Program-made: the position numbers and the translations under genes | NCBI GenBank assembly: GCA_963780165.1 | Contig: CAWABB010000001.1 | Span: 1,816,556 to 1,880,555 of the forward strand | Direction: 5' to 3' | Source: an uncultured Ignavibacteria bacterium | Lineage (GTDB): Bacteria > Bacteroidota > Ignavibacteria > UBA10030 > UBA6906 | Length of the DNA: 64,000 bases | Part shown: piece by piece, positions 934-54,318 of the stretch | Layout: each line of letters opens with the position of its first letter | Position numbering within the stretch: position 1 is the stretch's first letter | The notes under the pieces: generated by a model | What the model saw: the letters and a program-made list of their open reading frames with translations, nothing else | Databases searched by the model: none | Told to the model about the DNA's origin: nothing

Positions 934-3187
934 CGCGCCGCTGCGCCGAAGAGGACGCGCGCCGCACGCGCTTTCGCGGCTCGACGTCGGGATACTTCAC
1001 GCGCGTGTGATAGATGCCAACCAGGACGTTCACGAACGCTTCCTTGACCTTCGTGATGTCCTGCAGCGTTAACGGGCACTCATCCAGCTCACCCTGTTCC
1101 ACGCGCCGCTTCACAACGTCGTCCACAAGATCGGTGATGCGTTGCGGCGTCGGCTCTTCGATCGTCCTGACTGCCGCCTCGATCGCGTCCGCAAGCATCA
1201 TAATCCCGGTTTCTCGGGTCTGCGGCTTCGGTCCGGGATAGCGGTAATCCTGCTCCTTGATCTCGTCGATCTTTGTTTCGTCGTCGGACTGGCGCGCCAC
1301 CTCCAGCGCCTTCGAGTAGAAGAAGTCCATCCGCGTGGTGCCGTGGTGCATCGGGATGAATTCGATCACCTCTTCCGGGAGCTTGTAGTCGCGGGCCAGT
1401 GCCATCCCCTCCTTCACATGGGCCGCGATGATGAGCGAGCTCATGCGCGGCGCAAGCTTGTCGTGCCTGCTGCGGGAGGTCTTCTGATTCTCGACGAAGT
1501 ACGTCGGCTTGATAATCTTCCCGATATCGTGGAAGTATGCGCCGACGCGCGCAAGCGTTGCATTGGCTCCGATCGTTGCGGCCCCCGCCTCAGCCAGGCT
1601 GGCCATGGTCATACTGTGGTGGTAGGTGCCGGGCGCCTTCTCGGCAAGCTGGCGGAGCAGCGGGTGGTTGAACTGCACCAGCTCCAGCAGCGTCAGGTCG
1701 GTCGTGAGCCGGAACGTCTTCTCGATGAAGATCAACAGACCGTATGTCAGCACCGGAGAAATGATGGCGTTGGACGCGGCGAACGCGAGCTGCTGGAGGA
1801 GCAGCCCGAGCGGCTCGCTCCGCGCAAAACCCAGCGCGACGATCGCCAGCCCGTATCCCAGGAAGATGAAGCCCAGAGAGTGGAAGATCTGGGTGCGGTT
1901 CTTCATGTCCCGTACCGTGTAGACCGACAGCGCGCCAGCGACGAGCGAGGCCAGGGCGATGCCGTAATCGTTCCCCCAGATGCCAGCGACGATGAACGAA
2001 AGGATCACCGTCCCGTAAAACCCGACGCGCGAATCGAAGAAGATCGTCAAGAGCATTGAGGCCGCGGGCACGACGATGAGATACTCCACCGGCGCCTTGA
2101 CATGCAGCATCCTGAGCGCCCAGGCGGCGGTCCCGGCAAGGAGCATGATCAGCGCAATCAAGGCGAGCTTTCGTGTTCTGCCCACGATGCGCTTTCTGAA
2201 CAGGAATAGATAGATCCCGTAGAGCGTGACGAGGAGTGCGACGTGCAGCGCGGAGCCGATGATCTGGAGCGGTGTGTCGGTGGCGGGGCCCCGGTCCACA
2301 CGGGCCCGGTTGAACGAATCGAGCTTCAGCTTGATCTCGGGCGTGATGCGGTCGTGCTCGGAGACAATGCGCTCGTTCTCCTGCACGAACCCGGTCGTGC
2401 GCGGAACGGCATCGACGGCGGCAGCGGCGGCAAGCGCTGTGGCGGTGTCGTTGAACACCAGGCTCGGCAGAATGTCCGTGATGATGATCTTGTACGCCTG
2501 GCTGCGCAGGCCCGCTGGCAACCGGCCTTCAGCGTCCAATCGTCTGTCGAGGCGCTCGGCGAGATCCCCGCGGTCCAGGAACCGGCTGAGCGGAACAATC
2601 TCTTCGGTCTTGCCGCGCCGGAGCGCAATGTCGGTCCTCTCGAGCTGCGTCTTCGAGCGGTCGAGGACTCCAGTCTGGAGAAATTCTGTCCCGATCGCGG
2701 CAACCGTGCTTTCTAGGACCGCCATGCGCCCGCGGACGTAGATTCCGCGCAGATCCCGCCACTCCTGATCCGTGAACCGCACATCGAGGCCGGAGCTCGA
2801 GGCGCTGAAGGCGAGCGTATCGCCCGCAGGGATGCGGAGCGTAGAATCCAGACGGGAGAACACTCGTGCAATTGCGGCGCGATAGTGCGCCGGCGCGGTC
2901 GAATCACGTTCAAAGACGGGATAGACGGAACGGCGTGCTTCAGCCACGTCCTGTGCGTACTCCTGCTCGTCGCGGTTGATCGGAAAGGAGAAGGGGGCGA
3001 TAAGATCGCGCTGGGCCCAGATAGCCCCGACGCGCGCATCGACTTCGATCTGTTCTCCCCGGGGGAACATCAGCCCGAGAAGGACGATCAGCCCGAGAGC
3101 GATGCTGAGTTTGGCCGCATCAGACCTGACGAGGTGCAGGCCGCGAAAGCGGCGGCCCAGAGCGAGGAGGGGATATTCATCGGCCAT
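890..3187 (-). CDS. 7TM receptor with intracellular HD/HDIG phosphohydrolase domain (7TMR-HD family).
   Basis: 765 aa. It has an N-terminal extracytoplasmic region, a block of about 7 TM helices, and a C-terminal HD domain (HHSMTMASLAEAG...YFHDIGK...HHG). The start ATG is at 3185-3187. Confidence 0.8.
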   Translation of the reverse strand: MADEYPLLALGRRFRGLHLVRSDAAKLSIALGLIVLLGLMFPRGEQIEVDARVGAIWAQRDLIAPFSFPINRDEQEYAQDVAEARRSVYPVFERDSTAPAHYRAAIARVFSRLDSTLRIPAGDTLAFSASSSGLDVRFTDQEWRDLRGIYVRGRMAVLESTVAAIGTEFLQTGVLDRSKTQLERTDIALRRGKTEEIVPLSRFLDRGDLAERLDRRLDAEGRLPAGLRSQAYKIIITDILPSLVFNDTATALAAAAAVDAVPRTTGFVQENERIVSEHDRITPEIKLKLDSFNRARVDRGPATDTPLQIIGSALHVALLVTLYGIYLFLFRKRIVGRTRKLALIALIMLLAGTAAWALRMLHVKAPVEYLIVVPAASMLLTIFFDSRVGFYGTVILSFIVAGIWGNDYGIALASLVAGALSVYTVRDMKNRTQIFHSLGFIFLGYGLAIVALGFARSEPLGLLLQQLAFAASNAIISPVLTYGLLIFIEKTFRLTTDLTLLELVQFNHPLLRQLAEKAPGTYHHSMTMASLAEAGAATIGANATLARVGAYFHDIGKIIKPTYFVENQKTSRSRHDKLAPRMSSLIIAAHVKEGMALARDYKLPEEVIEFIPMHHGTTRMDFFYSKALEVARQSDDETKIDEIKEQDYRYPGPKPQTRETGIMMLADAIEAAVRTIEEPTPQRITDLVDDVVKRRVEQGELDECPLTLQDITKVKEAFVNVLVGIYHTRVKYPDVEPRKRVRRASSSAQRRDDQGEEPIPARGQE

Positions 3188-3242
3188 GCGGACGGGCAGA
3201 CATTATGTAAACAAATAAACTAAGAACGCGCGCCAGAGTCAA

Positions 3243-3284
3243 TCAGAAATGCGAAGCCCCGTCCTGCTGACGCCGGCCGGGGCT
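3243..3284 (-). terminator. Candidate rho-independent terminator downstream of the cytochrome/Cyc2 operon.
   Basis: AGCCCCG...CGGGGCT forms a 7-bp GC stem (3255-3261 / 3278-3284). On the minus-strand transcript it is followed by a U-rich run (UCGCAUUUCUGAUU). It sits 30 nt after the stop of the 3316..3753 gene. The loop is long, so the call is weak. Confidence 0.35.
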
Positions 3285-3315
3285 CCTGGTGCCAATGTTT
3301 CAGACCCTGACACGG

Positions 3316-3753
3316 TCAGTTGTTCTTCGCCCCCTGATTCACCCACTCGGTGATGATGCCGATGTCCCCGTCCGACAATGGCTTGATCGGCTCCTTCTTC
3401 CGCTTCTTGCGGGGATCAAAGGGCATCCGGTCGCCGAACGGCGGATTCTCCAGAAGCTTCTGCACGAAGACGCTCTCCGATGCCTTCCCCGGCTTAACCA
3501 AATCTCCGTGTTTCCCGCCTTTCATCAGCAGATCATACGAGTCGAGCGACAGCTCGCTCGGATTAAACTGCTCCTCCGCATGGCACGGCATGCAGTTCCT
3601 GCTGATGATCGGGACGATGTCTTGCGAGAATGATACGGGCGGGCGGACCTTCGGAGTATCCACTCTTTCCACGCCCTTCTCCTGCGCCCGCGCAGCAACC
3701 GCCCAGCCCACCACGAGCAGCGCCAACACACACCAACGATGACGTTCTCTCAA
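3316..3753 (-). CDS. Periplasmic monohaem c-type cytochrome, PSCyt1-like domain.
   Basis: It has a signal peptide (MRERHRWCVLALLVVGWAVAARA) and a single CXXCH motif (CMPCH). The C-terminus shows the pattern ...GG.HGDLVKPG...S.....L....FGDRMPF...LSDGDIGIITEWVNQGA, which resembles the Planctomycete-type cytochrome c (PSCyt1) domain. It is a paralogue of the C-terminus of the 4979..5683 gene. Confidence 0.7.
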   Translation of the reverse strand: MRERHRWCVLALLVVGWAVAARAQEKGVERVDTPKVRPPVSFSQDIVPIISRNCMPCHAEEQFNPSELSLDSYDLLMKGGKHGDLVKPGKASESVFVQKLLENPPFGDRMPFDPRKKRKKEPIKPLSDGDIGIITEWVNQGAKNN

Positions 3754-3764
3754 CGCGCCCTCCC

Positions 3765-4886
3765 TTACAGGTAAAAGTGAAGCATGATGTGAAACTCGTT
3801 GTTGGAGTAGTTCTCCGGCTCCTCCACGACCACGCGATACATCGGACGGACCTCTACGCCGCTCACGGGGAAAAATTCCACCCCGAAACTGTAGCGCGAC
3901 ATCGCGCCATCCTTCACGTCCTTGTCCGGATCGTAGAAATCGTATGCGACCTTCAGGTCCACGCCCGGCGTGACGACGTAGTTGGCCTCGGCGTATGCCA
4001 CGTAGCCGGTAACGGTCCCCGACGGATGTTTCGTCTGGATCATGTCCCCCTCGCCGAACAGCGTGAAGTCTCCGATGCTGAACGACCCAACGCCGCCGAA
4101 GAGATTCTGCGTCACGTCGCCCGAGGTCGTCGTCCCGAACATGTTCGCCCCCAGGCCGAGATGCATGTCTTTCCCAAGCTCGAAGAGACCGTCGGCCCTG
4201 ACCAGGTATGCCTTGCTGTTCCCCGTCGCGGCGCCGAAGCCGTCCTGCGCGTTGTACACCCCTGCAAACGCGGAGAACCAGCCGGGCGACACTCCCGCCT
4301 CGAGGCCCGTCAGCTCAGGCCGCGGGCTGGATTCCGGACTGAACCCCGTGTAGTGGCGGATGTAGGCCGTATGGTCGTCGAGGCGCGTACCAAAGTTCGG
4401 GACAAACTTTCCGACCTTCACGTGCCCGGCGGCCGGCAGCTGGGAGACCATGCCGAACAACTCAAAGCCACTGTAGAGGCCCTTTTCGAAATAGACGTTC
4501 ACCCTCTTGGCGAGCTTGAAGTTGAGGTACAGATCCCCCTGCATCTCCCAGAACGCGTTGCTGTTCTTCCCGGATGAGCCACCGGTGTCCGGCAGCTGCA
4601 CATAATAATAGAGCGTCCGCACGTCCACGCCGACTCCGACGAAGTTCGTGAGCAGCGTCGTAAAGTCTTCGATCTCCATGTCTGTGCCCCACTCCGGAAC
4701 CGGGAGCGTTTCCCGGCCGTACTGCGCACCAAACAGCTGCCGCATGCCGGCACCGGACGGGTTCACGTGACACGACTGGCACTTCGCGCCCGTCCTGCTC
4801 GAAAACCGCGGCAGGGCGGCAGCCTGGTTGAGCATGAACATCGCGCCAACCACAACGAGAGAAAGACAACGAAGCAGCACGCGCAT
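3765..4886 (-). CDS. cyc2: Cyc2-like fused monohaem cytochrome c / outer-membrane beta-barrel porin.
   Basis: It has a signal peptide (MRVLLRCLSLVVVGAMFMLNQAAA) followed by a single CXXCH (AKCQSCH) within 20 residues of the mature N-terminus. About 340 aa then follow with alternating hydrophobic beta-strand patterns rich in G/Y/F, ending ...IMLHFYL. Size (about 373 aa) and architecture match Cyc2-type iron-oxidase porin-cytochromes. The ATG is at 4884-4886 with an AAGGGA ribosome-binding site upstream. Confidence 0.6.
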   Translation of the reverse strand: MRVLLRCLSLVVVGAMFMLNQAAALPRFSSRTGAKCQSCHVNPSGAGMRQLFGAQYGRETLPVPEWGTDMEIEDFTTLLTNFVGVGVDVRTLYYYVQLPDTGGSSGKNSNAFWEMQGDLYLNFKLAKRVNVYFEKGLYSGFELFGMVSQLPAAGHVKVGKFVPNFGTRLDDHTAYIRHYTGFSPESSPRPELTGLEAGVSPGWFSAFAGVYNAQDGFGAATGNSKAYLVRADGLFELGKDMHLGLGANMFGTTTSGDVTQNLFGGVGSFSIGDFTLFGEGDMIQTKHPSGTVTGYVAYAEANYVVTPGVDLKVAYDFYDPDKDVKDGAMSRYSFGVEFFPVSGVEVRPMYRVVVEEPENYSNNEFHIMLHFYL

Positions 4887-4978
4887 GGTCGTCCCTTTCG
4901 GTCCTGGAGGTGGAATGCACGACACGGGAGGCGGGGAAATATACCTACCCCCCGTGTGTGATTCAACACAACCGACCA

Positions 4979-5683
4979 CTAGTTATTCAGCGCGCCCTGA
5001 TCGACCCAGGTACGGATGGTCGTGATACTCGCGTCCGGCAGGAACGGACCGCCCTGCGGCATGCGGGCACCGAAAGGCGGGTTCGGTGAGATCTTCTTCA
5101 CGAGGTTCGAGCCGGCTCCATCGCCAGGCACGATGGCCGGTCCATGGTTGCCGCCTCTGAGCAGGTCGGCAACCGTTTCCACCGTCAGCCCGTTGGTGCC
5201 GCCGTGGCACCCTGTGCAGCCGTGCTGCACCAGCAACGGGTGAACATCCTGCGAGAAGGAGACCTGTGTCGTCCCCGCCTGAACCGTTACTCCGACGGCA
5301 TTCGAGTTCGCGGAGATCCCGCCCGCCGTCACGGCGCGCACACGATAAAAGTAGCGCGCGCCGGTGGTGAGCCCGGTGATCGTGAGGGAGGTCGCAATTC
5401 CGGCGTCGCGGTTGTTGTAGCCGGCAAGGAACGAGCCGAACAGCGAATCCTGAGAGACGTCGAGGCGATAACCCGTAGCCCCGCTGACGGCGCTCCACCT
5501 TGCGGTGAAGCTTGAATCGGTGACGCCCGTCGGCGAGCCGGCGGTGGGGACGCCGGTGTCGGGCGGAGTAGCGGGGTTGGTGCCCGAATCGCTGCACCCC
5601 GCTGCCAGCAGCATCAGTCCGGCCATTGCTGCCAGAAGCGGGGACGCAGTCGTCGACCCGGCGGAGGATCGAACGATGAACAT
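4979..5683 (-). CDS. Lipoprotein with an FN3-like domain fused to a C-terminal monohaem cytochrome c (PSCyt1-like).
   Basis: Lipobox LLAAGC. The central part has a fibronectin-III-like segment (...GYRLDVSQD...TGLTTGARYFYRVRAVTAGG). The C-terminus has CTGCH plus ...GG.HGPAIVPGDGAGSNLVKKI...FGARMP...ITTIRTWVDQGA, homologous to the 3316..3753 gene. The ATG at 5681-5683 lies 17 nt after the CHRD gene stop. Confidence 0.7.
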   Translation of the reverse strand: MFIVRSSAGSTTASPLLAAMAGLMLLAAGCSDSGTNPATPPDTGVPTAGSPTGVTDSSFTARWSAVSGATGYRLDVSQDSLFGSFLAGYNNRDAGIATSLTITGLTTGARYFYRVRAVTAGGISANSNAVGVTVQAGTTQVSFSQDVHPLLVQHGCTGCHGGTNGLTVETVADLLRGGNHGPAIVPGDGAGSNLVKKISPNPPFGARMPQGGPFLPDASITTIRTWVDQGALNN

Positions 5684-5699
5684 GTGGTGGTGCCTCCTG

Positions 5700-7616
5700 T
5701 TATTTGAGTATGAGCATGCGTTTCGTGAGCGATGGGCCGCTGCCCGCATCCAGCCTGTAGAAATAGACGCCGCTGGAAAGTCCGCGCGCGTCAAAGGTGG
5801 CCAGGTAGGTCCCGGCCGGGCGCACGTCATCAACAAGTGTCGCGACCTCCTGCCCGAGCAGACTGTACACCTTCAGCGACACCCGACCGGGCTCCGGAAC
5901 CTGGAAGCGGATCGAGGTTGACGGATTGAAGGGGTTGGGATAGTTCTGATCCAGCGAAAAGGCTGACGGTAGAGCCTCCTCAACCGGCGCAACGGATGTC
6001 ACCGCGTCTGAACCGAAACGCACCTGTCCGCGGATCTCACCTCCCGGATGGGCGGCCGTATGGAAGTTAGCATAGATGCGACCAGCCAGCAAGGAATCCA
6101 CGAGCGCCCGGGTCAACGGCTGCGACGGGCTGTTCGTGGACCAGTTGTCCGCAATCGTTGCCGACGCAGGATCGCTTGCCCCGGCAATGTTCCGCACCAC
6201 GGGCCCGTTCACACCGACCGGCGCCGCATGGAAGTGCCCGCCGATCGAAAGCGGTCCGGAGAGGCCATAGTACGTAATTGCATAGCCAATGTCTTGACGT
6301 TCCGCATTCAGCACCACGGATCCCGCCCCGCGCCCCGCGGTTGCGACGGCAGGAACTTCCTGATCCCCGTCAAGCATGATGGTGAACCCCACGCCGGTGG
6401 TGAGATGCACCTGGTCTCTGATTTCGCCGGCCGGGTTCGCCGTCGTGTGGAAGTTTACGTAGATCCTCCCTGCCAGCAGCGCCTCCACCAGCGCGACTGT
6501 CAGCGGCTGGGAGTCGGTGGTCGTCCACGTCCCTGCATACGTGGCAGAAGCAGGGCCGCCGCCATTCGCTACACCGCGCACGACCGGCCCGGATTGCCCC
6601 TGATCGCCCGTATGGAAGTGTCCGCCGGCGGTCAGCGGCCCGGTCAGGCCGAAGTAGGTAATCTCGTAGCGCAATTCATTCCGCGCATCGTTCAGCGTGA
6701 ACGACCCGGCCCCTTTCCCGTCTGCGGTCACCGTCCCGGGTTCGTTAGAAGCTTCGAGCCACGAGAAGAAGCTCGTGCCGCCCTGGAGTTCGAGCTGGCC
6801 CCGGATCTCCCCTCCGGGATTCGCGGCGGTATGGAAGTTCACGTAGAGGCGCCCGGCAATGAGCGAATCCGCGAGCGCCGGTGTGAGCGGCGTGCTGTCC
6901 GTGAACTTCCAGCTTCCCTTGATGGCGTCCGCTGCGGGACCCCCGCCCGACGCGATTCCGAGCGCCACGGGCCCCGATACCCCACGAGCCCCCGTATGAA
7001 TGTGGCCGCCCGCACTGAGTGAGCCGCTCAGGTCGCGATAGGCCAGGTAGTAATCGAGCTGCGATCTGTTTGGAGATAGGATGAATACGCCCGTCCCCAT
7101 GGCGTCGGTCGTCACAGGATTCGGTTCCTGCGCCCCGGAGAGGTGCGCGGTGAAGTGCAGGGCTGTCGCAAGCGTGACCTGGCCCCGGATTTCGCCCGCC
7201 GGATTTGAGTTTGTATGGAAATTCACGTAGACCCGGCCGGTGAGCAACGACTCAACAAGTGCCGGTGTGAGCGGCTCTGTGTCGGTGCTCCGCCAGACTC
7301 CCGTGATGATCCCCGACGGCGCCGCCCCCGCCTCTGCAATGCCTCGCATGGCGGCGCCGTTTGTTCCCGGGGACCCCACGTGAAAATGCCCGCCCACCGA
7401 GAGCGCGCCTGTCAGCCCCTGATAGGAGATCACATACGCAAGCTCGGTGAACGTCTCATTCAGCGAGAACGAACCTGAGCCCGTCCCTGTGACGGCGGAG
7501 GGGGGAACGCTCTGCGCGCCGTTCAGCGTTGCCGAAAAGTGGATCTGCGCGTTCGCCGGGCCCGCCCCAGCAAGCACGAGAGCGATCAGCACCATGGTGT
7601 ATCGGAATCGAGTCAT
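5700..7616 (-). CDS. T9SS-secreted protein with four tandem CHRD domains.
   Basis: It has a signal peptide. Four modules of about 150 aa each carry the CHRD signature (GGH[FI]H.G..G..GPV...I.......G.W...D..PLT.ALV..LL.GR.YVNFHT..[NH]P.GEIRGQ). The C-terminus (NYPNPFNPSTSIRFQVPEPGRVSLKVYSLLGQEVATLVD...GVYFYRL) is a Por/T9SS C-terminal sorting domain. Confidence 0.8.
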   Translation of the reverse strand: MTRFRYTMVLIALVLAGAGPANAQIHFSATLNGAQSVPPSAVTGTGSGSFSLNETFTELAYVISYQGLTGALSVGGHFHVGSPGTNGAAMRGIAEAGAAPSGIITGVWRSTDTEPLTPALVESLLTGRVYVNFHTNSNPAGEIRGQVTLATALHFTAHLSGAQEPNPVTTDAMGTGVFILSPNRSQLDYYLAYRDLSGSLSAGGHIHTGARGVSGPVALGIASGGGPAADAIKGSWKFTDSTPLTPALADSLIAGRLYVNFHTAANPGGEIRGQLELQGGTSFFSWLEASNEPGTVTADGKGAGSFTLNDARNELRYEITYFGLTGPLTAGGHFHTGDQGQSGPVVRGVANGGGPASATYAGTWTTTDSQPLTVALVEALLAGRIYVNFHTTANPAGEIRDQVHLTTGVGFTIMLDGDQEVPAVATAGRGAGSVVLNAERQDIGYAITYYGLSGPLSIGGHFHAAPVGVNGPVVRNIAGASDPASATIADNWSTNSPSQPLTRALVDSLLAGRIYANFHTAAHPGGEIRGQVRFGSDAVTSVAPVEEALPSAFSLDQNYPNPFNPSTSIRFQVPEPGRVSLKVYSLLGQEVATLVDDVRPAGTYLATFDARGLSSGVYFYRLDAGSGPSLTKRMLILK

Positions 7617-7645
7617 GTGTGTCTCCAGTCTGGTTGCAGCTGTGG

Positions 7646-7852
7646 TTAGGCCGACCGTTTCGCGGTCGTGACCTTGAGCAATGCGTACAGCGGGCAGAAT
7701 CCGGCGGCACCCGTCACGAGCAGCACGACAGCCACGATCCCGAGGATCACGGCAGTCGGGCCGGTGAGCTGTCCACCCATGATCAACACTCCGATCGCAA
7801 GTGCGACGAGCGTCCGGATGACACGGTCCGCCGAGCCGACATTCTTTGTCAT
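7646..7852 (-). CDS. DUF2892 (YgaP-like) small inner-membrane protein.
   Basis: 68 aa with two TM helices. Conserved ADRVIR...G.......LTG..GFCPLYALL motif. It is the first gene of the operon and has a GGGGGGA ribosome-binding site. Confidence 0.65.
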   Translation of the reverse strand: MTKNVGSADRVIRTLVALAIGVLIMGGQLTGPTAVILGIVAVVLLVTGAAGFCPLYALLKVTTAKRSA

Positions 7853-7975
7853 TTCAGTCCCCCCAGAAAAAGGTTTGCGTACTGCGTTGATTCAGTTGCT
7901 GTCGCCGTCCTGATCTTCGTCGGGGAAGGCCTTCTCAAACGACCTTTTGATGTTGTCTTCGACCATCCTCGCAGG

Positions 7976-7991
7976 GTCAAGCACCGTGCCA
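7976..7991 (-). promoter_or_regulatory. Putative sigma54 (-24/-12) promoter reading toward the DUF2892/CHRD/Cyc2 operon.
   Basis: The minus strand reads TGGCACGGTGCTTGAC. This matches TGGCACG-N4-TTGMW, with GG at -24 and TTG at -12. The single mismatch is GA in place of the conserved GC. It lies about 125 bp upstream of the DUF2892 start, and a sigma54 activator is encoded adjacent. Confidence 0.45.
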
Positions 7992-8100
7992 CACCGGGAG
8001 GCGCGCAGGCCGGCATGAACATGGCGGAAATGGCTGATACGGTGCGGGTCCGGGGGGGAACGGGGATTTCAGGCCGCACCCCGGGTACGGAGATGGGCGA

Positions 8101-8128
8101 CCCGGTGTGGCGGCCGTGCCACACCGGG
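8101..8128. promoter_or_regulatory. Perfect inverted repeat CCCGGTGTGGC-N6-GCCACACCGGG, a candidate enhancer (UAS) for the adjacent NtrC-family activator.
   Basis: The arms are 11 bp with a 6-bp spacer. It lies about 115 bp upstream of the putative sigma54 promoter, relative to minus-strand transcription. The half-site GCCACACCGGG recurs at 7988-7998, overlapping the -24 element. Confidence 0.45.
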
Positions 8129-8223
8129 GAGAGGCTCAACGAAAGCCACGATGGAGCTCGCAAGAGACCGGGAGATGGTCTTTGGGAGACTGGGCTGAAG
8201 CGCGCAAAAGGCTGCGGCAGCGC

Positions 8224-9639
8224 TTACGCGCGATATGTGGCCGGGTCGATCGAGTGCTCGGCGAGTTTGCGGTACACGGTCTTCCTGTCCACCTCCATCA
8301 GCCGCGCTATCTGGTTGATGTTGCCCCGATGCTCCCGCATGAGCCGGAGCAGGTATCGCTCCTCGGCGACGCGCACAATCACCCCGAGATAATCGCGGTA
8401 CGGAATATCGAGGCCGGGGACGGCGGGTTGCTCATCTCCCGCGAGCGCGTGATCGGCGGCACCGGGGAGTTCGAGGTGCGTGATCGTGTCGCCGGGCGTC
8501 TTGAGCAGCGCACGCTTGATCAGGTTCTCGAGCTCGCGGACATTCCCGCGCCAGGGATGCGCAACCATCTCGCCGATGACGTCAGGACTGATGGAGGTGA
8601 CGCGCCCACCAGCAAGGTGGGCGTGAAGCCGCAAGAAATGCTCCGCAAGCAACGGGATGTCCTCCACGCGCTCGCGCAGTGGCGGAAGCGTGATCGGAAA
8701 CACGTTTAGACGGTAGAAGAGATCCTCGCGGAAATCTCCCGCAGCAACCATGACATCAAGATTGCGGTTCGTTGCGGCCACGACACGGGTGTCGACCGTA
8801 ACGGTCTTCCCTCCGCCGACGCGCTGGAATGTCTTTTCCTGCAGTACCCTCAGGAGCTTCCCCTGCAGCGCTGGCGGCATCTCCCCGATCTCATCCAGGA
8901 AGAGGGTCCCCGTGTCTGCCTCCTCGAACTTCCCGGTCCGCTGCCTGTCGGCTCCCGTGAACGAGCCCCGCTCGTGGCCGAACAGCTCGCTTTCCAGCAG
9001 TTGTTCCGGCAGCGCCGTACAGTTCACGGCAACGAACGGGCTCGACTTCCGTCTGCCGTTGAAGTGCAGCGCACGCGCGACAAGCTCCTTCCCGGTTCCG
9101 CTTTCACCAAGGATCAACACGGTCACGTCGGTGTCGGCAACCTGCGTGATCTGGGTGATCACGTCCCGTATCCCGGGGCTGCGGGAAACCATCCCGCCCA
9201 GACTGTACTTCGTCTGGACGGCGTCCCGCAGCGACCTGAGCTCGAGCTCCCGGAACTGCTGATCCAGAGCCCGGCGGATCTTGATCGACAGCTCCTCATT
9301 GTTGGACGGTTTGGTCAGGTAGTCGATGGCGCCGAGTCGCATGGCTTCCACCGCCGTCTGGATGGAACCGAATCCCGTCACCATGATCACAGGCAGGTCA
9401 GGCCACTGCTGCTTGACGATGCGAAGAAGGTCGATGCCACTTCCGCTCCCCATCACAAGATCGGAAAGGAGCAGGTCACATCGCTGGGCAGCGAGGATAT
9501 CGAGCGCTTTCGTGACGCCGTCGGCCAGCGTCACCTTGTAGCCCTCGTCCTCGAGCACGGTGCGGGTCGCCAGCCGGAAGGCTCCGTCGTCATCCGTCAC
9601 AAGGATGTGTTCTCTCGGGCGTGCGTCAGTGTGTGTCAT
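8224..9639 (-). CDS. Sigma54-dependent response regulator (NtrC family; REC-AAA+-HTH).
   Basis: Receiver domain (ILVTDDD...DLLLSDLVMG...). AAA+ sigma54-interaction domain (GESGTGKELVARALH, GAFTGA-like SFTGA). C-terminal Fis-type HTH. Its start overlaps the stop of the upstream kinase. Confidence 0.9.
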   Translation of the reverse strand: MTHTDARPREHILVTDDDGAFRLATRTVLEDEGYKVTLADGVTKALDILAAQRCDLLLSDLVMGSGSGIDLLRIVKQQWPDLPVIMVTGFGSIQTAVEAMRLGAIDYLTKPSNNEELSIKIRRALDQQFRELELRSLRDAVQTKYSLGGMVSRSPGIRDVITQITQVADTDVTVLILGESGTGKELVARALHFNGRRKSSPFVAVNCTALPEQLLESELFGHERGSFTGADRQRTGKFEEADTGTLFLDEIGEMPPALQGKLLRVLQEKTFQRVGGGKTVTVDTRVVAATNRNLDVMVAAGDFREDLFYRLNVFPITLPPLRERVEDIPLLAEHFLRLHAHLAGGRVTSISPDVIGEMVAHPWRGNVRELENLIKRALLKTPGDTITHLELPGAADHALAGDEQPAVPGLDIPYRDYLGVIVRVAEERYLLRLMREHRGNINQIARLMEVDRKTVYRKLAEHSIDPATYRA

Positions 9640-11209
9640 CGTGCGCGTCTCCGGACGGCAGCGTGATCGTGAGCCGTGTTCCCTTGCCGGCTGTGCTCTG
9701 GACGGTGATCGTGCCGCCGTGCTGGTGAACGATTCCGTGGGTGACCGAGAGGCCGAGGCCGACCCCGCTTACCTCTTTCTTTGTAGTGAAAAAGGCGTCG
9801 AAAATGCGATGAAGGTGTTCGGGAGGGATGCCCGTGCCGGTGTCGTCCACACGGACCACGAGGTTGCCTCCCTCCGCCCGCGCCCCGATCGAGATCGTCC
9901 CACCATGCGGCATCGCATCCCGCGAGTTCAGAAGAAGATTCAGGAACACCTGCTTCAGCTTGTCCCGGGATCCGCGGACTGCAGGGAGTCCGGGGCCCGC
10001 CGATACGTCGATCGAGATACCCTGCCCTGCGAACGATTCCCGGTACATGCGAACAACGTCTTCCACGAGGTCCATCACGTTCACCGGTGAGCGCTCCACC
10101 CGGACCGGAGCGCCGCGGTACATGTCCAGCATCGCCCTCGTCAATCCCGCAAGGCGGTTCACCTCGTCCAGCGCCACCGACACCAGCTCGTGCGCCGGAT
10201 CATCGGCGCGGATTTTCCGGAGCGATGAAGACAGGAGGCTCTGGATGTTATGGACGGGGTTGTTGATCTCGTGCGAAAGCTGGGCGGTCAGCGTGCCAGT
10301 CAGCGCGAGGCGCTCGCTGCGCACGAGGTCTTCCTGTGTCCTGCGCAGGCGCTCGAGTGCCTCTTCGATGTCACGATTCTTCCGCGACAGCTCACGGTTG
10401 GCGTGATCGAGCTCGCCGATCTTCTGCCTGAGCGAGAGACGCATGTCGTCGAACCTTGCCGCAAGGAACCCGAGCTCGTCTCCCGCGTCCGTTTCCTCCG
10501 CCGCCCGAGGGGTGGCAGACTCGAGGTCGCCCTTGCTGATCGCGCGGGTCGCCGCAACCAGCCGGTCCACCGGCCTGGTGACAAACCGCGTGAACATGAA
10601 CGACGAGACAAAGATGACGAGCCCCGTGAATCCCAGGAAGATGAGGAGCGACCGTGTCCAGTTCGCCCTGGTCGCGGCGGTCATATCGGCGAACGAAACG
10701 CTGAGGTCGGCCGCGCCAAGCGTGTAGCCCACGGGCACAGCATGGCACTCCTGGCAGGTCTTTGTTGCAGTGAACGGGATGACCCCTCGGAACCGATCGC
10801 CCGCCCGAACGAACTCGGGGGTTCCGCTCTCCAGTGCCTTCCGCGTCATCGGGTCGCGCGCACCGATGTCGACGAACCGGCGGCTGGTGGCGACCTTCGG
10901 CACCGCAGGCTGCGCTTCCTTGCGCAGCCGGAGGTCATTCACCACGAGCCGCACCGTCTCGAACCGCTCGATGGTATTCACCCGCTCGATAAACGCAGTA
11001 TCGACTTCCAGATTCGTCACCATCATGCTGACCAGGGATTCCCGGAGGATGTCGGCATGTGTGTGGGCGGACAACTGTGCCTGCTCCACCATTTCGCGCT
11101 CCTGGAACCGGTTCTGGAGGAGCACGCTAACCGAGATAAACAGGAGGAACAGGGGGAGAATCCCCAGGAGAATCTTCCGGGAGAGCGGCAGACGCTGCAG
11201 AACGTGCAT
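9626..11209 (-). CDS. Sensor histidine kinase with a periplasmic CXXCH (haem-c) containing sensor domain.
   Basis: N-terminal TM, a periplasmic domain of about 170 aa containing TKTCQECHAVPVGYTLGAADLSVSF, a second TM, HAMP, HisKA (LSHEINNPV) and HATPase_c. The periplasmic module may be Tll0287-like/DUF3365 (haem-c PAS-like), but this is unconfirmed. The likely start is the ATG at 11207-11209. Confidence 0.85.
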   Translation of the reverse strand: MHVLQRLPLSRKILLGILPLFLLFISVSVLLQNRFQEREMVEQAQLSAHTHADILRESLVSMMVTNLEVDTAFIERVNTIERFETVRLVVNDLRLRKEAQPAVPKVATSRRFVDIGARDPMTRKALESGTPEFVRAGDRFRGVIPFTATKTCQECHAVPVGYTLGAADLSVSFADMTAATRANWTRSLLIFLGFTGLVIFVSSFMFTRFVTRPVDRLVAATRAISKGDLESATPRAAEETDAGDELGFLAARFDDMRLSLRQKIGELDHANRELSRKNRDIEEALERLRRTQEDLVRSERLALTGTLTAQLSHEINNPVHNIQSLLSSSLRKIRADDPAHELVSVALDEVNRLAGLTRAMLDMYRGAPVRVERSPVNVMDLVEDVVRMYRESFAGQGISIDVSAGPGLPAVRGSRDKLKQVFLNLLLNSRDAMPHGGTISIGARAEGGNLVVRVDDTGTGIPPEHLHRIFDAFFTTKKEVSGVGLGLSVTHGIVHQHGGTITVQSTAGKGTRLTITLPSGDAHDDTH

Positions 11210-11331
11210 GGAACGGCCGGTAATTGGTGGACGGCGACGGCTGATTCGGCTCAAGGTACCTGTTTGACGAAAGAGAATCAAAAAACAGCCTTCTTGAACC
11301 TCCACATTCGGATGCCTATATTATAGATTCG

Positions 11332-11781
11332 ATGTGCATTTCACATCGCACGCTGATGACGCCAAGCTCCTCGACACTCTCTCTTCTGGCCGCACTGGAC
11401 ACCGCCTCCCGCGGACAGCTGAAGCGACGCGACGACCTCGGAATATTGCTTGACCTGGGGGCCTCCCCGGAGCAGTCTGCCGTACTCGCCGATCTGGCAT
11501 TTCGCTCGAAATTCCTGACGCGCGCATTCGGCATCATGCAGAGGATCGGCCGTGAAGGGAATGGTTACGACAGGCTGGAAACGGAATTCGCCGTCAACAT
11601 GGACGCGGCCCGCGGCCGTCTGCGCTCACTTCTTTCCGGTGCCCCGGACGACATCCGAGACCGCTTCTCTTCCTCATACCTCGCACTGACCCCCGGCGGG
11701 CTCAGCACTCTGATGGCGCTCCTGGGCGATCTCACGTGGTACAAGAACTGGCTCCTCGACAGCAAGCAGGCGCACGTATGA
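11332..11781 (+). CDS. Hypothetical protein, first gene of an ATGA-coupled operon.
   Basis: 149-aa ORF with no recognizable motif. Its stop overlaps the next start (ATGA at 11778-11781). Confidence 0.45.
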   Translation: MCISHRTLMTPSSSTLSLLAALDTASRGQLKRRDDLGILLDLGASPEQSAVLADLAFRSKFLTRAFGIMQRIGREGNGYDRLETEFAVNMDAARGRLRSLLSGAPDDIRDRFSSSYLALTPGGLSTLMALLGDLTWYKNWLLDSKQAHV

Positions 11782-12326
11782 CGGACAATCGCCCGGACGC
11801 CAGGCTGCAGGACCGCGTCTTCCGGCTGGCGCTCGTCGTCCTCCTGATGGCAACCATTGTGTGGTTCGGCGCGAGCATCATGCGCATCATGCTCTGGAGC
11901 GAGCTGTTGAAGCCGGGCACGCTGCAGTTCGAGGACTATATCGCCCCCGAAGCGGAACGTGAGATCTACCGGCTGCTCTCGATGGCCTCGGCCTACGCCA
12001 TTGGCGGATACGTGATCGTCATCATGAGCAGCGTCGTGGTGCTCGCCACCTCTCCTCTGCGGCCAAAAGACCACGGTTGGCTTATGCTGAGCGCCATCCT
12101 CCTCTTTCTCTTCGTCCCCGTCGAGGTGTACACTGCGTATCTCGATCTGAAGATGATCTACATGGAATTTTACACGGCGGAGGCCCGCGCCTCGTTTCGC
12201 GAGCTCTTTCTCGCCCGCGTCGGCGCCCTCGCTGGCACCCCCTTCATCGCACAGCTCTGCTACATCACCATCATCGTGGTGGTGGTATTCCAGCCGTTCC
12301 GAAAACGTTTTCCATCCGCGCCATGA
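11778..12326 (+). CDS. Hypothetical integral membrane protein (4 TM).
   Basis: Four hydrophobic helices. ATGA overlaps at both ends. Confidence 0.5.
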   Translation: MTDNRPDARLQDRVFRLALVVLLMATIVWFGASIMRIMLWSELLKPGTLQFEDYIAPEAEREIYRLLSMASAYAIGGYVIVIMSSVVVLATSPLRPKDHGWLMLSAILLFLFVPVEVYTAYLDLKMIYMEFYTAEARASFRELFLARVGALAGTPFIAQLCYITIIVVVVFQPFRKRFPSAP

Positions 12327-12595
12327 AAGCCGAGGACATCATCGAAGAGCTGCAGGACGTCGCCAGACAGATCGGCGTCACCGTCCGGTTTGAAAAGGGT
12401 GATTTCGAGGGCGGATACTGCGTGCTGCGGGATCAGCACCTCGTGCTGATCAACAAGCGGCTCATGCCCTCGCGCAAGGCCTCCACGCTGGCGCTCGCGC
12501 TGCAGAACATCGGCCTGGAGACGATCTTCCTGAAGCCTGCCATCCGTCAGTTCATCGAAGACGAGGCCGTGAAAGCCTCGCGGGAGGCGCGATGA
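12323..12595 (+). CDS. Hypothetical small protein (90 aa).
   Basis: MKAEDIIEELQDVARQIGVTVRFEKGDFEGGYCVLRDQHLVLINKRL... ATGA overlaps at both ends, and coding-like codon usage. Confidence 0.5.
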   Translation: MKAEDIIEELQDVARQIGVTVRFEKGDFEGGYCVLRDQHLVLINKRLMPSRKASTLALALQNIGLETIFLKPAIRQFIEDEAVKASREAR

Positions 12596-13290
12596 TCAAG
12601 GCCGTGATTTTTGACCTCGACAACACGCTCGTGGATTTTATGAGCATGAAGCGGCAGGCCGTCGATGCCGCGATCCAGTCGATGATCGATGCGGGGCTGA
12701 GGCTGAGCCCCGGCGCCGTCCGCGAACGCATCGACGCGATCTACAAGGAGCGGGGCATCGAGTTCCAGAACGTCTTCGACCAGCTGCTCTACGATGTCTT
12801 CCAGAAGGTCGACTACAAGATCCTGTCCGCAGGCATCGTCGCCTACCGCCGGGCCCGGGAGGCGGCACTGGTTCCGTATCCGCATGTGAATATGACGTTG
12901 CTCGCGCTGCTGAAGCGCGGGATCAAGCTCGCGGTAGTCAGCGACGCGCCCAGCCGCGAGGCGTGGCTCCGCCTCTGCTACCTGAACCTCCAGCACGCAT
13001 TCGATGTGGTCGTCACGTTCGAGGACACCGGTCAGCACAAGCCGAGCCCCGCACCCTTCCTCAAGGCACTCACCGGCCTGGGAGTCGAGGCGCACGAGAC
13101 TCTCATGGTCGGCGACTGGCCGGAGCGGGACATGGTGGGGGCGGCAACCGTCGGCATCACCACAGTGTTCGCCCGCTATGGCGATACGTTCGGGACAATC
13201 CATTCCGGGGCGAAATACGACGTCAACGACGTGTCCGAGCTTCTGACTGTCATCGACAGGGAAAACGGGATCCCGGGGGATATCCGATGA
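12592..13290 (+). CDS. HAD-superfamily hydrolase.
   Basis: Motif I is FDLDNTLVD. K-PSP and GD.P.D motifs are present, and the length is typical (232 aa). Confidence 0.85.
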   Translation: MIKAVIFDLDNTLVDFMSMKRQAVDAAIQSMIDAGLRLSPGAVRERIDAIYKERGIEFQNVFDQLLYDVFQKVDYKILSAGIVAYRRAREAALVPYPHVNMTLLALLKRGIKLAVVSDAPSREAWLRLCYLNLQHAFDVVVTFEDTGQHKPSPAPFLKALTGLGVEAHETLMVGDWPERDMVGAATVGITTVFARYGDTFGTIHSGAKYDVNDVSELLTVIDRENGIPGDIR

Positions 13291-13664
13291 TCAAGGGAAT
13301 CGGCGTCGACATCATCGAGATCGATCGTATCCGTCGCCTGGCGACTGACAGCGGAGAGAGGTTCCTTCAGCGGGTGTTCACCGAGGGCGAGCTCCGGTAC
13401 GCCGCCGGAAAGCACCATCAGTACCAGCACCTCGCGGCACGCTTCGCCGCCAAGGAGGCAACGAGCAAGGCCCTGGCCACCGGATGGTCCGGGGCTTTCC
13501 GCTGGACGGACGTCGAGGTGGTCAACGACCCCACGGGCCAGCCGCGCATCGTGCTCCATGGCGAGCTCGAGAAGTTGCTGGCCGGCGCCACCGTCCATGT
13601 CACCATCTCCCACTCGGATTTTCACGTCGTCGCGATGGTTGTCATCGAGGAGTCCCGGCCGTGA
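13287..13664 (+). CDS. acpS: Holo-[acyl-carrier-protein] synthase (4'-phosphopantetheinyl transferase).
   Basis: MIKGIGVDIIEIDRI...FTEGELRYA...RFAAKEATSKALGTG... is a canonical AcpS sequence of 125 aa. Confidence 0.9.
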   Translation: MIKGIGVDIIEIDRIRRLATDSGERFLQRVFTEGELRYAAGKHHQYQHLAARFAAKEATSKALATGWSGAFRWTDVEVVNDPTGQPRIVLHGELEKLLAGATVHVTISHSDFHVVAMVVIEESRP

Positions 13665-13666
13665 GG

Positions 13667-15124
13667 ATGAGCATTTACGGGAAGATGGTGATCGGGTTTG
13701 GTGTCATCATCCTGGTGCTGGTCCTCGTCAACGGGTCCATCCTGTTTCAGCTGCGGGAGTTCTCGGACACGGTTCGCCTCATGCTGGCAACGAACGCCCG
13801 CACCATCGAAGCTGCCCGCCAGGCGCGCACGCTACTGGCTGAAGAGGAGGGGAGCGCCCGGAAACTCCTTGTCACCGGCGACACCCTGTACAGGGCTCTC
13901 TTTGCCGACGTCGCCTCGCTCTCCCGGCCACTCATCGATTCCGTCCTCCCATCGATCTCGCCGCCCCGCGAACGTCCGGCGCTCGCGGCCATCGCCGCGT
14001 CCCATCGCACGCTTTGCGAGTCGATCATGAACCCCGCGATGCTGCCGGGCAAGGGAACGGCCTCGGGGCTGCGGGAAGCGGCGATCGCCGACACAATCGC
14101 TCGGCTTCAACTGTCGCTGGACGGAGTGATCATGCGCACGCGCGAGGACATGAGCCGCTCGATGACCGAGCTCGAGACGAACACCGGGCGAGCGCTGGAA
14201 CGCGCGGCGTACCTGACCATCGGGGCGTTGCTCGGCACGCTGCTCGTCGCGCTCATCATCACGCGCACCATTACCCGCCCGCTGAAGGCCCTGCAGGCCG
14301 GAACGCGCCACGTTCTCGAGGGAGTCCATGTCCCTATCCGGGTCTCCTCCAGAGACGAGATCGCCAGCCTTGCCGACGACTTCAACGACATGAGCGAGCG
14401 GCTGAAACGGAGCAACGAACTCCGGACGGAAATGCTGCAGCAGATCTCACATGAGATTCGGAGTCCGCTGCAGTCCATGTACGCCGCATACTACCTCCTC
14501 TCCCAGCAGATCGCGGGCCCGATCACGGACGAGCAGCGCAAGGTGATCGGCAACATCAAGAACAACATCGACCGCATTTCGGATTTCAGCACACACTTCC
14601 TCGACCTTGCAAAGATCGAAGCGGGCGTGATGCCGTTCGCCCCCGAAACGGTCAACCTCGCCGACGTGATCGCCCCGGCCGTCGAGAACGCCCTGCTCGT
14701 CGCGCGTGAACGGAACATCACCCTCACGCTGGAGGCCACAGAGACCCCCCGGGTGACAGTCGATCCCGGCAAGATCGAGCAGGTTGCGACGAATTTTCTG
14801 ACCAACGCCCTGAAATATACGCCCGAGGGCGGAAGGATCACCGTTCACGTCGGCCCCTCCGAATTCGGGACGCAGCTCACCGTCACCGACACCGGCGTGG
14901 GAATCCCGCCGGAGGACGTGCCGAAACTCTTCACGAAGTTCTTCCAGGCAGCGAATTCCGGACAGACGGGGAGGAAGGGGACCGGTCTCGGGCTCGCCCT
15001 CGTACGGGCGATCATCAAGCAGCACGGCGGCCATGTCCGCGCGGAAAGCGTGCTCGGCTCGGGCTCGACGTTCATCGCCGAGTTCCCGCCGGCAACTGTC
15101 AGCCAGGAGGAATCAGCATCATGA
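13667..15124 (+). CDS. Sensor histidine kinase (TM-sensor-HAMP-HisKA-HATPase).
   Basis: N-terminal TM, HAMP, HisKA (ISHEIRSPLQSM) and HATPase_c (DTGVGIP..., GTGLGLAL). Confidence 0.9.
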   Translation: MSIYGKMVIGFGVIILVLVLVNGSILFQLREFSDTVRLMLATNARTIEAARQARTLLAEEEGSARKLLVTGDTLYRALFADVASLSRPLIDSVLPSISPPRERPALAAIAASHRTLCESIMNPAMLPGKGTASGLREAAIADTIARLQLSLDGVIMRTREDMSRSMTELETNTGRALERAAYLTIGALLGTLLVALIITRTITRPLKALQAGTRHVLEGVHVPIRVSSRDEIASLADDFNDMSERLKRSNELRTEMLQQISHEIRSPLQSMYAAYYLLSQQIAGPITDEQRKVIGNIKNNIDRISDFSTHFLDLAKIEAGVMPFAPETVNLADVIAPAVENALLVARERNITLTLEATETPRVTVDPGKIEQVATNFLTNALKYTPEGGRITVHVGPSEFGTQLTVTDTGVGIPPEDVPKLFTKFFQAANSGQTGRKGTGLGLALVRAIIKQHGGHVRAESVLGSGSTFIAEFPPATVSQEESAS

Positions 15125-15669
15125 CGGATTCACTGCGATATTCGCCGGCAGTCATCCTGTGCTGCGTATTGTTGGCAGGCTGCGCGCCATCGAAGGACAC
15201 TGGCTCGGCAGAGGGCGACGCCGAGGCGGTCCTGGCATTCGCCGAATCGCTCGAAGCCGATTCCTTGCTCGACCAGGCTACAGCTCAATACGCGATAGTC
15301 GCAGAGCAGTTCCCGACGGCCGACGTCTATCCGCTGGCCGTTCGACGGGTAGCGTTTCTGTACGCTCATCCCGACAATCCCGCCCATAACGACACGCTGG
15401 CGTTACGGTGGATGAGGATCTACAATCCCCTGGCGCGCACCCGGGAGGAACGGCAGGAGGTCGCCGTGGCCACAACCCTGATCCAGCAGAACATGGCGCT
15501 CCGTGAGCAGCTGGGCCACGAATCCGCTTCCGGCGACAGCCTTGCGACGCTTCTCCGCAGGCAGGGTCGCCGCGTCAGGGACCTCGAAACGGAATTGCAG
15601 CAGGTCAACGACGAGCTCCGCAAACTCAAGGAAGTTGACGTGCGCACGTCCCGGACACGAAAGAAGTGA
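15121..15669 (+). CDS. Lipoprotein with a C-terminal coiled coil, uncharacterized.
   Basis: Lipobox LLAGC. Coiled-coil heptads sit near the C-terminus. Its ATG overlaps the kinase stop (ATGA). Confidence 0.6.
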   Translation: MTDSLRYSPAVILCCVLLAGCAPSKDTGSAEGDAEAVLAFAESLEADSLLDQATAQYAIVAEQFPTADVYPLAVRRVAFLYAHPDNPAHNDTLALRWMRIYNPLARTREERQEVAVATTLIQQNMALREQLGHESASGDSLATLLRRQGRRVRDLETELQQVNDELRKLKEVDVRTSRTRKK

Positions 15670-15797
15670 TCCCCGTCGCATGATCTTCGGGTGGCGGCAG
15701 GGCTTGCGCCGCCGATCCCCCCCGGGGGGGGGCGGTTTGCAACTCAGAGGCAGATTCTGTAAGTTCTTCTCGATTACGTCACGGCGCGTGAGGGACC

Positions 15798-16181
15798 ATG
15801 AAGTCGCTCGGCATCAAAAAACTGTACTACTCCATCAGCGAGGTCAGCAAGATCACCGACCTCGAGCAGTATGTCCTGCGCTACTGGGAGTCGGAGTTCG
15901 ACGAGCTGAAGCCGGCGAAGAACCGGGCGGGAAACAGGATCTACACAAACCGTGACATCAAGCTGATCCTGTACATCAAGAAGCTGCTGCGCGACGAGCG
16001 CTACACCATCGAGGGGGCAAAGCAGGTCCTGAAGAGCTACGCTCCCGATACCGGCCTGGGCGAGCAGCTCGAGCTGATTAACCAGCCGAAGGCCCGGACA
16101 AAGATCAAGGACGAACAACTCCGGTCCGACGTGACGGAAGTGAAGACCTTCCTCGAAGACCTGCTGAAGAAGTTGAACTGA
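15798..16181 (+). CDS. MerR-family transcriptional regulator.
   Basis: N-terminal HTH (YYSISEVSKITDLEQYVLRYWESEF) followed by a coiled-coil tail. Confidence 0.7.
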   Translation: MKSLGIKKLYYSISEVSKITDLEQYVLRYWESEFDELKPAKNRAGNRIYTNRDIKLILYIKKLLRDERYTIEGAKQVLKSYAPDTGLGEQLELINQPKARTKIKDEQLRSDVTEVKTFLEDLLKKLN

Positions 16182-16988: not shown

Positions 16989-16995
16989 GGAGCCC

Positions 16996-19912: not shown

Positions 19913-19928
19913 GGTGGCTTTCCTCCTG

Positions 19929-22043: not shown

Positions 22044-22050
22044 GCGTTCC

Positions 22051-54294: not shown

Positions 54295-54318
54295 GCGGTG
54301 CCGCCGGCATTTACCAGC

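Follow-up and report, generated by a model that had tools for sequence, protein, structure and literature searches.

A sensor histidine kinase with a predicted haem-c Cache domain beside a Cyc2-like operon in an uncultured Ignavibacteria bacterium

The stretch of DNA analysed here (the window) comprises 64,000 nucleotides of contig CAWABB010000001.1 (positions 1,816,556 to 1,880,555 of the forward strand; assembly GCA_963780165.1) from an uncultured Ignavibacteria bacterium. We have focused on a gene for a sensor histidine kinase of 527 aa (9626..11209), for which a preliminary description, made from the sequence alone, had proposed a c-type haem in the periplasmic sensor domain. The open reading frame (ORF) list and Pfam matches to HAMP, HisKA and HATPase_c leave no doubt that it is a real histidine kinase gene. 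It starts with ATG at 11209; a longer, GTG-initiated ORF extends to 11305, and homologues of the kinase begin at the ATG position, not at the upstream GTG. The kinase gene is followed by that of a response regulator and, beyond an intergenic gap, by a cluster of genes for secreted and cytochrome-like proteins. The kinase gene and all features within it described below, the regulator gene, the promoter and the genes of this cluster are located on the (-) strand.

Two hydrophobic segments were recognised in a Kyte-Doolittle scan. Transmembrane segment 1 (TM1, ~ aa 13-31; 11117..11173) lies within helix 9-66 of the structural models presented below, and TM2 (~ aa 186-207; 10589..10654) corresponds to model helix 174-204. 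Because these two segments flank the sensor, aa 33-184 (10658..11113) are assigned to the periplasm, and according to profile, model and Foldseek evidence they represent a sensor domain of the sCache_heme type. The domain is thus flanked by transmembrane segments as previously proposed, and its size of ~ 152 aa is below the estimate of about 170 aa. Residues R6, R11 and K12 precede TM1, placing the N-terminus inside, and the HAMP domain (aa 206-262; 10424..10594; PF00672, E 6.3e-11) comes right after TM2, in agreement with the extracytoplasmic location characteristic of sCache_heme. Downstream, the HisKA/DHp domain (aa 306-365; 10115..10294; PF00512, E 8.8e-9) includes the H-box LSHEINNP, located in the translation, with the phospho-acceptor H313 at nt 10271-10273. 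The HATPase_c catalytic domain (aa 414-519; 9653..9970; PF02518, E 2.2e-28) completes the kinase.

The peptide quoted in the preliminary description, TKTCQECHAVPVGYTLGAADLSVSF, is present in the periplasmic domain and carries the haem-c attachment motif CQECH at aa 152-156 (10742..10756 in the translation), comprised of C152, C155 and the predicted proximal ligand H156. These two cysteines are the only ones in the entire protein, and the number of CXXCH motifs expected by chance, computed from the protein's own composition, is ~ 2e-4. A word-indexed search of 5.8 billion proteins disclosed 13 close relatives, all metagenomic and labelled Bacteroidota. CQxCH is found at the aligned site in 10/10 close homologues that cover the position in frame; two others cover it out of frame (apparently frameshifted), and one stops before the site.

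To look at a wider family, the close-family sensor profile (A2) was used in a HMMER search against 1.84 billion cluster representatives, resulting in 253 proteins at E <= 1e-3. Residue conservation was counted in the 110 wider-family representatives that span the whole sensor domain. C155 and H156 are kept in 110/110 and C152 in 108/110. The residue M63 (11021..11023, codon checked), which is the predicted distal (sixth) haem ligand, is kept in 107/110, as are P145 and G165. Strict conservation of CXXCH, a hallmark of sCache_heme, therefore characterises the kinase family too, and conservation in orthologues, one point on which the preliminary description had made its claim depend, is evident both in close homologues and in the wider family.

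Some deviations from the motif were noticed. Serine replaces the first cysteine in two fairly close sensor representatives, P0017 (SQNCH) and P0019 (SQKCH), and CX3CH occurs in two distant ones, P0056 (CVSSCH) and P0142 (CLGSCH). Variants of the SXXCH type are able to hold haem via a single thioether. Outputs fused to the sensor, assessed in 87 wider-family members, include HAMP (67), MCPsignal (38), HisKA/HATPase (26) and GGDEF (15). P0006 (374 aa) is a chimeric gene call, in which the kinase sensor and HAMP run straight into the regulator's AAA lid and HTH_8. Although probably an artefact of assembly or deletion, it provides independent evidence that kinase and regulator are adjacent in another sample.

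The cognate NtrC-type response regulator is encoded at 8224..9639, with Pfam matches to Response_reg, Sigma54_activat (E 7e-73), AAA_lid_14 and HTH_8. The start of its gene overlaps the 3' end of the kinase gene by 14 nt. Its receiver domain has D60 as the phosphorylatable position, the sigma-54 AAA+ domain carries GSFTGA at aa 225, and a Fis-type helix-turn-helix (HTH) follows. All components of a two-component pair are accordingly found in adjacent, co-oriented genes: the H-box histidine and HATPase in one, the receiver aspartate, a GAFTGA-type loop and the HTH in the other.

The 600-bp gap downstream of the regulator gene holds a palindrome and a promoter. The palindrome TGTGGC-N6-GCCACA (TGTGGCGGCCGTGCCACA; 8106..8123, given without strand) is a putative upstream activating sequence of the sigma-54 activator, and it has 1 match in the 64-kb window vs 0.14 expected. 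Situated ~ 125 bp downstream of it is a sigma-54-type promoter, TGGCACGGTGCTTGA (7977..7991; TGGCAC-N5-TTGA), with a perfect -24 element. For comparison, the standard arrangement is TGGCAC-N5-TTGC(A/T), preceded at a distance of ~ 80-150 bp by an inverted-repeat activator site. Scans of 3000-11500 for sigma-70 promoters and terminators gave matches at chance level only. An exact sigma-54 consensus, TGGCACCGACATTGC, was located at 57723-57739; it lies inside a malate/lactate dehydrogenase ORF, is nearly palindromic, and was rejected as probably due to chance.

The putative operon behind this promoter begins with a gene for a YgaP-like (DUF2892) membrane protein of 68 aa (7646..7852; PF11127, E 1.1e-20). 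Next comes a secreted protein of 638 aa (5700..7616) with four tandem CHRD stretches (Pfam CHRD, E 5.4e-105) and a C-terminal sorting domain of the type IX secretion system (T9SS; Por_Secre_tail, TIGR04183). It is followed by a lipoprotein (4979..5683; Pfam fn3 and PSCyt1, translation) that combines fn3 with a PSCyt1 c-type cytochrome domain (CTGCH). The fourth gene, at 3765..4886, encodes a candidate fused cytochrome-porin of 373 aa, recognised in translation, with a signal peptide, a single CQSCH and a weak Porin_4 match. The last cytochrome gene of the cluster (3316..3753; PF07635, E 3.9e-6) specifies a small PSCyt1 c-type cytochrome (CMPCH).

The fourth protein had previously been taken to mark a Cyc2 operon. 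According to Keffer et al., Cyc2 is characterised by a signal peptide, a single CXXCH and a 16-strand porin, with AXPXFAR[Q/K][T/Y] before the CXXCH and PXL after it, and candidates are screened by PXFAR[Q/K][T/Y] together with a length of at least 365 aa (PMC8406198). Since all source names of homologues read "hypothetical protein", membership was checked against this published motif. The length, the signal peptide and the single N-terminal CXXCH, ~ 35 residues from the start, agree with Cyc2, as does the A-x-P-x-F-A pattern, and the remainder of the protein is putatively porin-like. Porin_4 matches to the protein itself are weak (E 4.6e-5 and 1.4e-3), and faint OMP_b-brl matches were obtained in homologues. 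More than 531 matches were found in the homologue search, and counts refer to the best-scoring 120 of them (P0161-P0280). Exactly one CXXCH is present in 117/120. The window sequence reads ALPRFSSRT...CQSCHVNPSG, and the consensus ALPRFA[A/S]RTGAKCQSCHVNPSGG is common to the window protein and 117/120 homologues. The strict PXFAR[Q/K][T/Y] matches 0/120. In contrast to Cyc2, the family has the consensus PRFA[A/S]RT, with PSG in place of the downstream PXL. "Cyc2-like" is the accurate label because the 3765-4886 protein fails the published screen.

These matches outline a large, unnamed, cytochrome-porin-like family of Ignavibacteria/Bacteroidota. Motif-based surveys of Cyc2 may overlook it, judging from the sequences, because its listed members never match PXFAR[Q/K][T/Y]. 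In two loci from other genomes, L008 (6551-9113) and L009 (6627-9580), the Cyc2-like homologue follows a cation-efflux (CDF) gene, with no two-component system nearby; in L009 it is, in addition, preceded by a Haem_bd protein and followed by a PSCyt1 cytochrome.

A single-sequence scan for related loci returned two genome loci only; further loci containing related sensors were compared as well. In the window, the module of palindrome and promoter occupies 7977-8123 (-). The palindrome and TGGCAC-N5-TTGA are present with the same spacing in the equivalent gap of three loci: L006 in the Ignavibacteria metagenome-assembled genome (MAG) CAVPBI01 (sensor identity 97%; module 11091-11240), L001 in a metagenome contig (ENA ERZ25039502; 89%; 13070-13220), and L007 in the Bacteroidota MAG JBGPYM01 (54%; 7314-7465). 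The TTGA form of the -12 element is kept, with a differing spacer, in all four loci, and the palindrome is doubled (two copies) in L007. The pairing of kinase and regulator is conserved in L001, L002, L006 and L007. No palindrome was found in L002-L005, loci that are also without the downstream operon. The small PSCyt1 cytochrome gene is syntenic in L001 and L007. The 4xCHRD T9SS gene is missing from the equivalent operon of L007, where an ORF resembling an extracytoplasmic function (ECF) sigma factor (~ 7515-8090, recognised by eye in translation) replaces the first operon genes, followed by the Cyc2-like gene and the cytochrome. As this ECF-sigma-like ORF is situated between the promoter and the Cyc2-like gene, the lineage of L007 might employ a regulatory cascade. 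Taken together, the 14-nt gene overlap, the conserved palindrome and the conserved sigma-54-type promoter give good support, in this lineage, to the earlier suggestion that the kinase feeds a sigma-54 activator of the downstream operon.

Homology and fold of the sensor domain were addressed with family profiles and structural models. The preliminary description had named Tll0287-like/DUF3365 domains or Geobacter haem sensors as relatives, and this assignment turned out to be right: homology is evident with the Geobacter domains and extends, at a greater distance, to Tll0287/DUF3365. Among the 87 wider-family members, 18 match PF21563 (Mcp40H-20_sensor) and 8 match PF11845 (Tll0287-like/DUF3365). 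As a connecting member, P0060 is found by A2 at E 2.3e-11 and itself reaches 27.2 bits on PF21563 (gathering score 27) and 22.4 bits on Tll0287-like. A further profile, A4, was derived from a 44-sequence alignment with the window kinase as its first sequence. Compared with the PDB, A4 gives significant matches to solved members, 3b42 (GSU0935; E 9.1e-10) and 3b47 (GSU0582; E 2.8e-6), spanning ~ 110 residues from the N-terminal helix to CXXCH. In the A4 alignment, M63 pairs with Met26 of chain 3b42_A, which equals Met60 of GSU0935 because the numbering is offset by 34 (chain H110 = His144). A direct hhalign comparison of A2 with the GSU0935 fragment yielded a probability of 80.8%.

The AlphaFold2 (AF2) model built from the 44 sequences has a predicted local distance difference test score (pLDDT) of 89.6 and a predicted template-modelling score (pTM) of 0.81; it replaced an earlier, mediocre model from 14 close sequences (pLDDT 68). 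In the model, helix 9-66 (TM1 and a periplasmic part with M63) is followed by a small sheet, strand 139-147, helix 151-154, strand 163-172 and helix 174-204. The CXXCH motif is in the short helix 151-154, which follows strand 139-147 and precedes the last strand 163-172, as is characteristic of the sCache_heme fold. A Foldseek search of the PDB with the 44-sequence model retrieved the sCache domain of WalK (template-modelling (TM) score 0.61) and GSU0582 (E 8.4e-4, 25% identity), as well as GSU0935, other Cache domains and Tll0287. The earlier, poorer model disclosed a similar set of matches, and both models matched 3b42 and 3b47 at E 5.5e-4 to 3.6e-3.

The two Geobacter sensors are among the closest known systems. 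In GSU0935, Cys140, Cys143 and His144 attach and ligate the haem, with Met60 as the distal ligand. Oxidised haems are high-spin and reduced ones low-spin, probably via binding of Met60, which is reversibly replaced by CO in the reduced form only and by NO in both forms. The two sensors operate over different redox-potential ranges, and their sensor domains crystallised as domain-swapped dimers (PMC8396549). GSU0582 and GSU0935 (PDB 3B47 and 3B42; PF21563) share with the kinase a TM-flanked periplasmic domain of the same fold, HAMP after TM2, and the pattern V-x-P-F...C-Q-x-C-H. In GSU0935 the methionine also resides on the long N-terminal helix (YMMKGD there vs SMMVTN in the kinase). They differ in having a chemoreceptor output, whereas the kinase here is accompanied by a sigma-54 regulator; identity is ~ 16-25%, PF21563 does not score the kinase, and its variable loop (aa 96-119) is longer. 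The Geobacter proteins come from Desulfobacterota and the kinase from Ignavibacteria/Bacteroidota.

The family sCache_heme, introduced in a 2026 preprint, unites DUF3365/Tll0287, GSU0582 and GSU0935. Its definition is a Cache fold in which an inserted helix with the CXXCH precedes the last strand. The CXXCH is 99% conserved, and kinases, chemoreceptors or GGDEF/EAL domains are the fusion partners of about half of the members. One HAMP-linked member from Pseudomonas behaves as an NO sensor and stand-alone members behave as redox proteins; cysteine is an axial ligand in Tll0287 and in a P. putida protein, while the P. azotoformans receptor is without that cysteine and may bind water as the sixth ligand (PMC12889525). 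The kinase agrees with this family in its extracytoplasmic position, the near-invariant CXXCH and the short helix before the last strand, and kinase fusions form "Cluster 2" there (PMC12889525). It differs in remaining under the PF11845 threshold and in a conserved methionine as the candidate distal ligand. Binding of NO is documented in the P. azotoformans sCache_heme-HAMP receptor, and in the branch of the kinase NO sensing would be hypothetical only. Tll0287 of Thermosynechococcus (PDB 5B82) has haem c and a PAS/Cache-like fold (Foldseek E 0.08-0.13, TM-score 0.42-0.44), but it is stand-alone, soluble and ligated by Cys/His, and is a far weaker match than the Geobacter domains. In the chemoreceptor DcrA of Desulfovibrio vulgaris, a c-type haem at a periplasmic CXXCH serves as redox or oxygen input, and the output differs from the kinase described here. 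Because kinase-fused members of sCache_heme have already been described, the architecture of the kinase is not new. The profile and model comparisons support the periplasmic domain as a divergent member of sCache_heme, of the Met-ligand (Geobacter) type, with predicted haem binding.

Combining these results, we consider it probable that the locus encodes a membrane kinase with a periplasmic sCache_heme input, holding one covalent haem c, that drives the sigma-54 regulator and through it the Cyc2-like operon. Several observations weigh against this interpretation. The Pfam check of DUF3365, suggested beforehand, is negative for the kinase itself: aa 1-205 have no Pfam match, neither PF11845 nor PF21563 reaches the gathering score, and both are silent even at E up to 10, so that the link is provided only by family profiles and structure. 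The sole match in direct Pfam/NCBIfam scans of the sensor region, TMEM120, is spurious. Of the relatives tested, P0014 is the nearest, and its PF11845 score of 19.3 bits is below the cut-off of 24.1. Since neither family model matches it, the kinase is placed in a divergent subfamily. The A2 close-family profile alone gives E 1.3 against 3b42, and hhalign of A2 with GSU0582 results in a probability of 39%. The strong link to the Geobacter domains is consequently transitive, via distant family members, and profile scores are partly fed by the TM helices. The root-mean-square deviation to the Geobacter structures in Foldseek is high (~ 15 A), which is plausibly due to the domain-swapped dimers in those crystals, and the AF2 models contain no haem. 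On the regulatory side, the -12 element is TTGA and not the canonical TTGC, and no rpoN gene was seen in the window. Furthermore, the kinases of L002-L005 are not beside a Cyc2-like operon; in L002 this holds even though the kinase-regulator pair is present. Conversely, L008 and L009 have a Cyc2-like homologue without such a kinase alongside. The link between kinase and operon is for these reasons lineage-specific, and as a general property of either family it is ruled out by the same loci.

The alternative that survives best is that haem c is bound and the domain acts as a redox or electron-transfer module, not as a signal input, or that the regulator has its targets elsewhere and the adjacency of the Cyc2-like genes is incidental. 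Stand-alone sCache_heme proteins do act as redox proteins (PMC12889525), the L002 pair has no Cyc2-like operon downstream, the Cyc2-like homologues of L008 and L009 occur in other contexts, and the -12 element is non-canonical. However, TM2 and HAMP connect the domain to a kinase that is complete and has its H-box intact, which argues for a signalling role. Incidental adjacency is difficult to reconcile with the palindrome and TGGCAC-N5-TTGA keeping a fixed distance of ~ 125 bp in three loci, the most distant of which has 54% identity in the sensor, and with the occurrence of both elements only where the operon is present. We therefore regard this alternative as unlikely.

It could also be imagined that the site is haem-free, with the CXXCH and the methionine forming a periplasmic thiol-disulphide switch or a soft-metal (Cu(I), Zn, Fe) site, so that the kinase would sense metal or thiol redox state. 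Cysteines, histidine and methionine are typical of Cu(I)/Zn sites and are invariant in the family, the wider window contains a CcoI-like P-type ATPase, a CDF transporter and a second P-type ATPase, and the close representatives P0017 and P0019 have SXXCH. Against this, crystal structures of homologues hold haem c on exactly these residues, a histidine right after the second cysteine in 110/110 is the haem-c signature, and SXXCH is still compatible with haem via one thioether. This makes a metal or thiol site highly improbable. An ordinary small-molecule sCache domain, with CXXCH as a cofactor-free relic, is highly improbable as well: the best structural matches do include the cofactor-free WalK, CitA and PctC, and the Pfam haem-sensor models give no match to the kinase itself, but a relic would not remain invariant across a family diverged to ~ 20% identity, and the motif occupies the inserted helix, specific to the family, by which the haem-binding subgroup is defined.

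Returning to a haem-bearing sensor kinase, a scheme can be proposed by analogy with the Geobacter sensors. C152 and C155 would form the thioether bonds to the haem, H156 would be the proximal iron ligand, and M63, on the long N-terminal helix continuing from TM1, would be a reversible distal ligand. With a change in haem redox state, or on binding of a diatomic gas (NO/CO, possibly O2), the Met ligand would be gained or displaced, and spin and coordination would alter. This could shift the N-terminal helix and TM1 relative to TM2. Relayed by HAMP, the movement would reach the DHp and catalytic domains and affect autophosphorylation of H313. The phosphoryl group would pass to D60 of the NtrC-type regulator, which, when activated, is expected to bind TGTGGC-N6-GCCACA (8106-8123) and drive the sigma-54 promoter 7977-7991 located ~ 125 bp downstream. 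The predicted transcript would cover the genes for the YgaP-like, 4xCHRD T9SS, fn3-cytochrome c, Cyc2-like and small cytochrome c proteins, the membership of which in one operon is presumed.

The kinase and its sigma-54 partner most likely switch on the neighbouring Cyc2-like operon; the direction of this response, activation, is what we infer. Redox state, NO and O2 are the candidate signals. Going further, one may speculate, with considerable reserve, that the kinase reads the redox state of the periplasm (which could reflect O2, NO or electron flux derived from Fe(II)) and in one lineage switches on, via the sigma-54 activator, the operon for the Cyc2-like outer-membrane cytochrome-porin and its periplasmic cytochromes.

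Other genes of the window provide the context. Cytochrome-related genes include a CcoN-CcoO fusion with a FixO domain, two PSCyt1 proteins and a DsbD_2 protein. A cbb3-type oxidase cluster is found near the sensor (16281-24626), with a DsbD_2 membrane protein (16281-16988), the fused CcoN-CcoO (COX1 and FixO; 19929-22100) and a CcoI-like P-type ATPase with an ATPase-cat_bd domain (22227-24626). The cluster fits a microaerobic respiratory context. Genes for cytochrome c maturation (ResB/CcsA or Ccm) were not found among the window ORFs scanned, and the ability to mature c-type cytochromes is deduced from the presence of the cbb3 oxidase and other cytochromes c.

Divergent from the kinase, a block at 11332-16181 (+) shows synteny with L001, L002, L006 and L007, whether or not these loci have the Cyc2-like operon. 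It comprises two unknown genes, a HAD hydrolase, ACPS, a second HAMP kinase (4HB_MCP-like sensor), an unknown gene and a MerR-like gene. In addition, four long ORFs (715, 421, 402 and 652 aa) in 36243-40938 (+) and 54298-56256 (+) have no Pfam match at E <= 1e-5.

As sensors of this kind, and also such sensors fused to histidine kinases, were already known, the finding is incremental. Structures of haem-c Cache sensors have been available from Geobacter since 2008, the large family was described only in 2026, and few outputs are known; current Pfam models overlook its divergent Bacteroidota/Ignavibacteria branch. In the locus described here the whole chain is legible, from sensor, kinase and regulator through palindrome and promoter to an operon of secreted and outer-membrane redox proteins. 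If the more speculative reading, with the redox state of the periplasm as input, is true, an extracellular electron-transfer module of the Cyc2 type would gain its first defined regulatory circuit, with a haem sensor that may exchange electrons with cytochromes under its own control. The locus offers a testable model for the possible control of a Cyc2-like electron-transfer module in uncultured Ignavibacteria.

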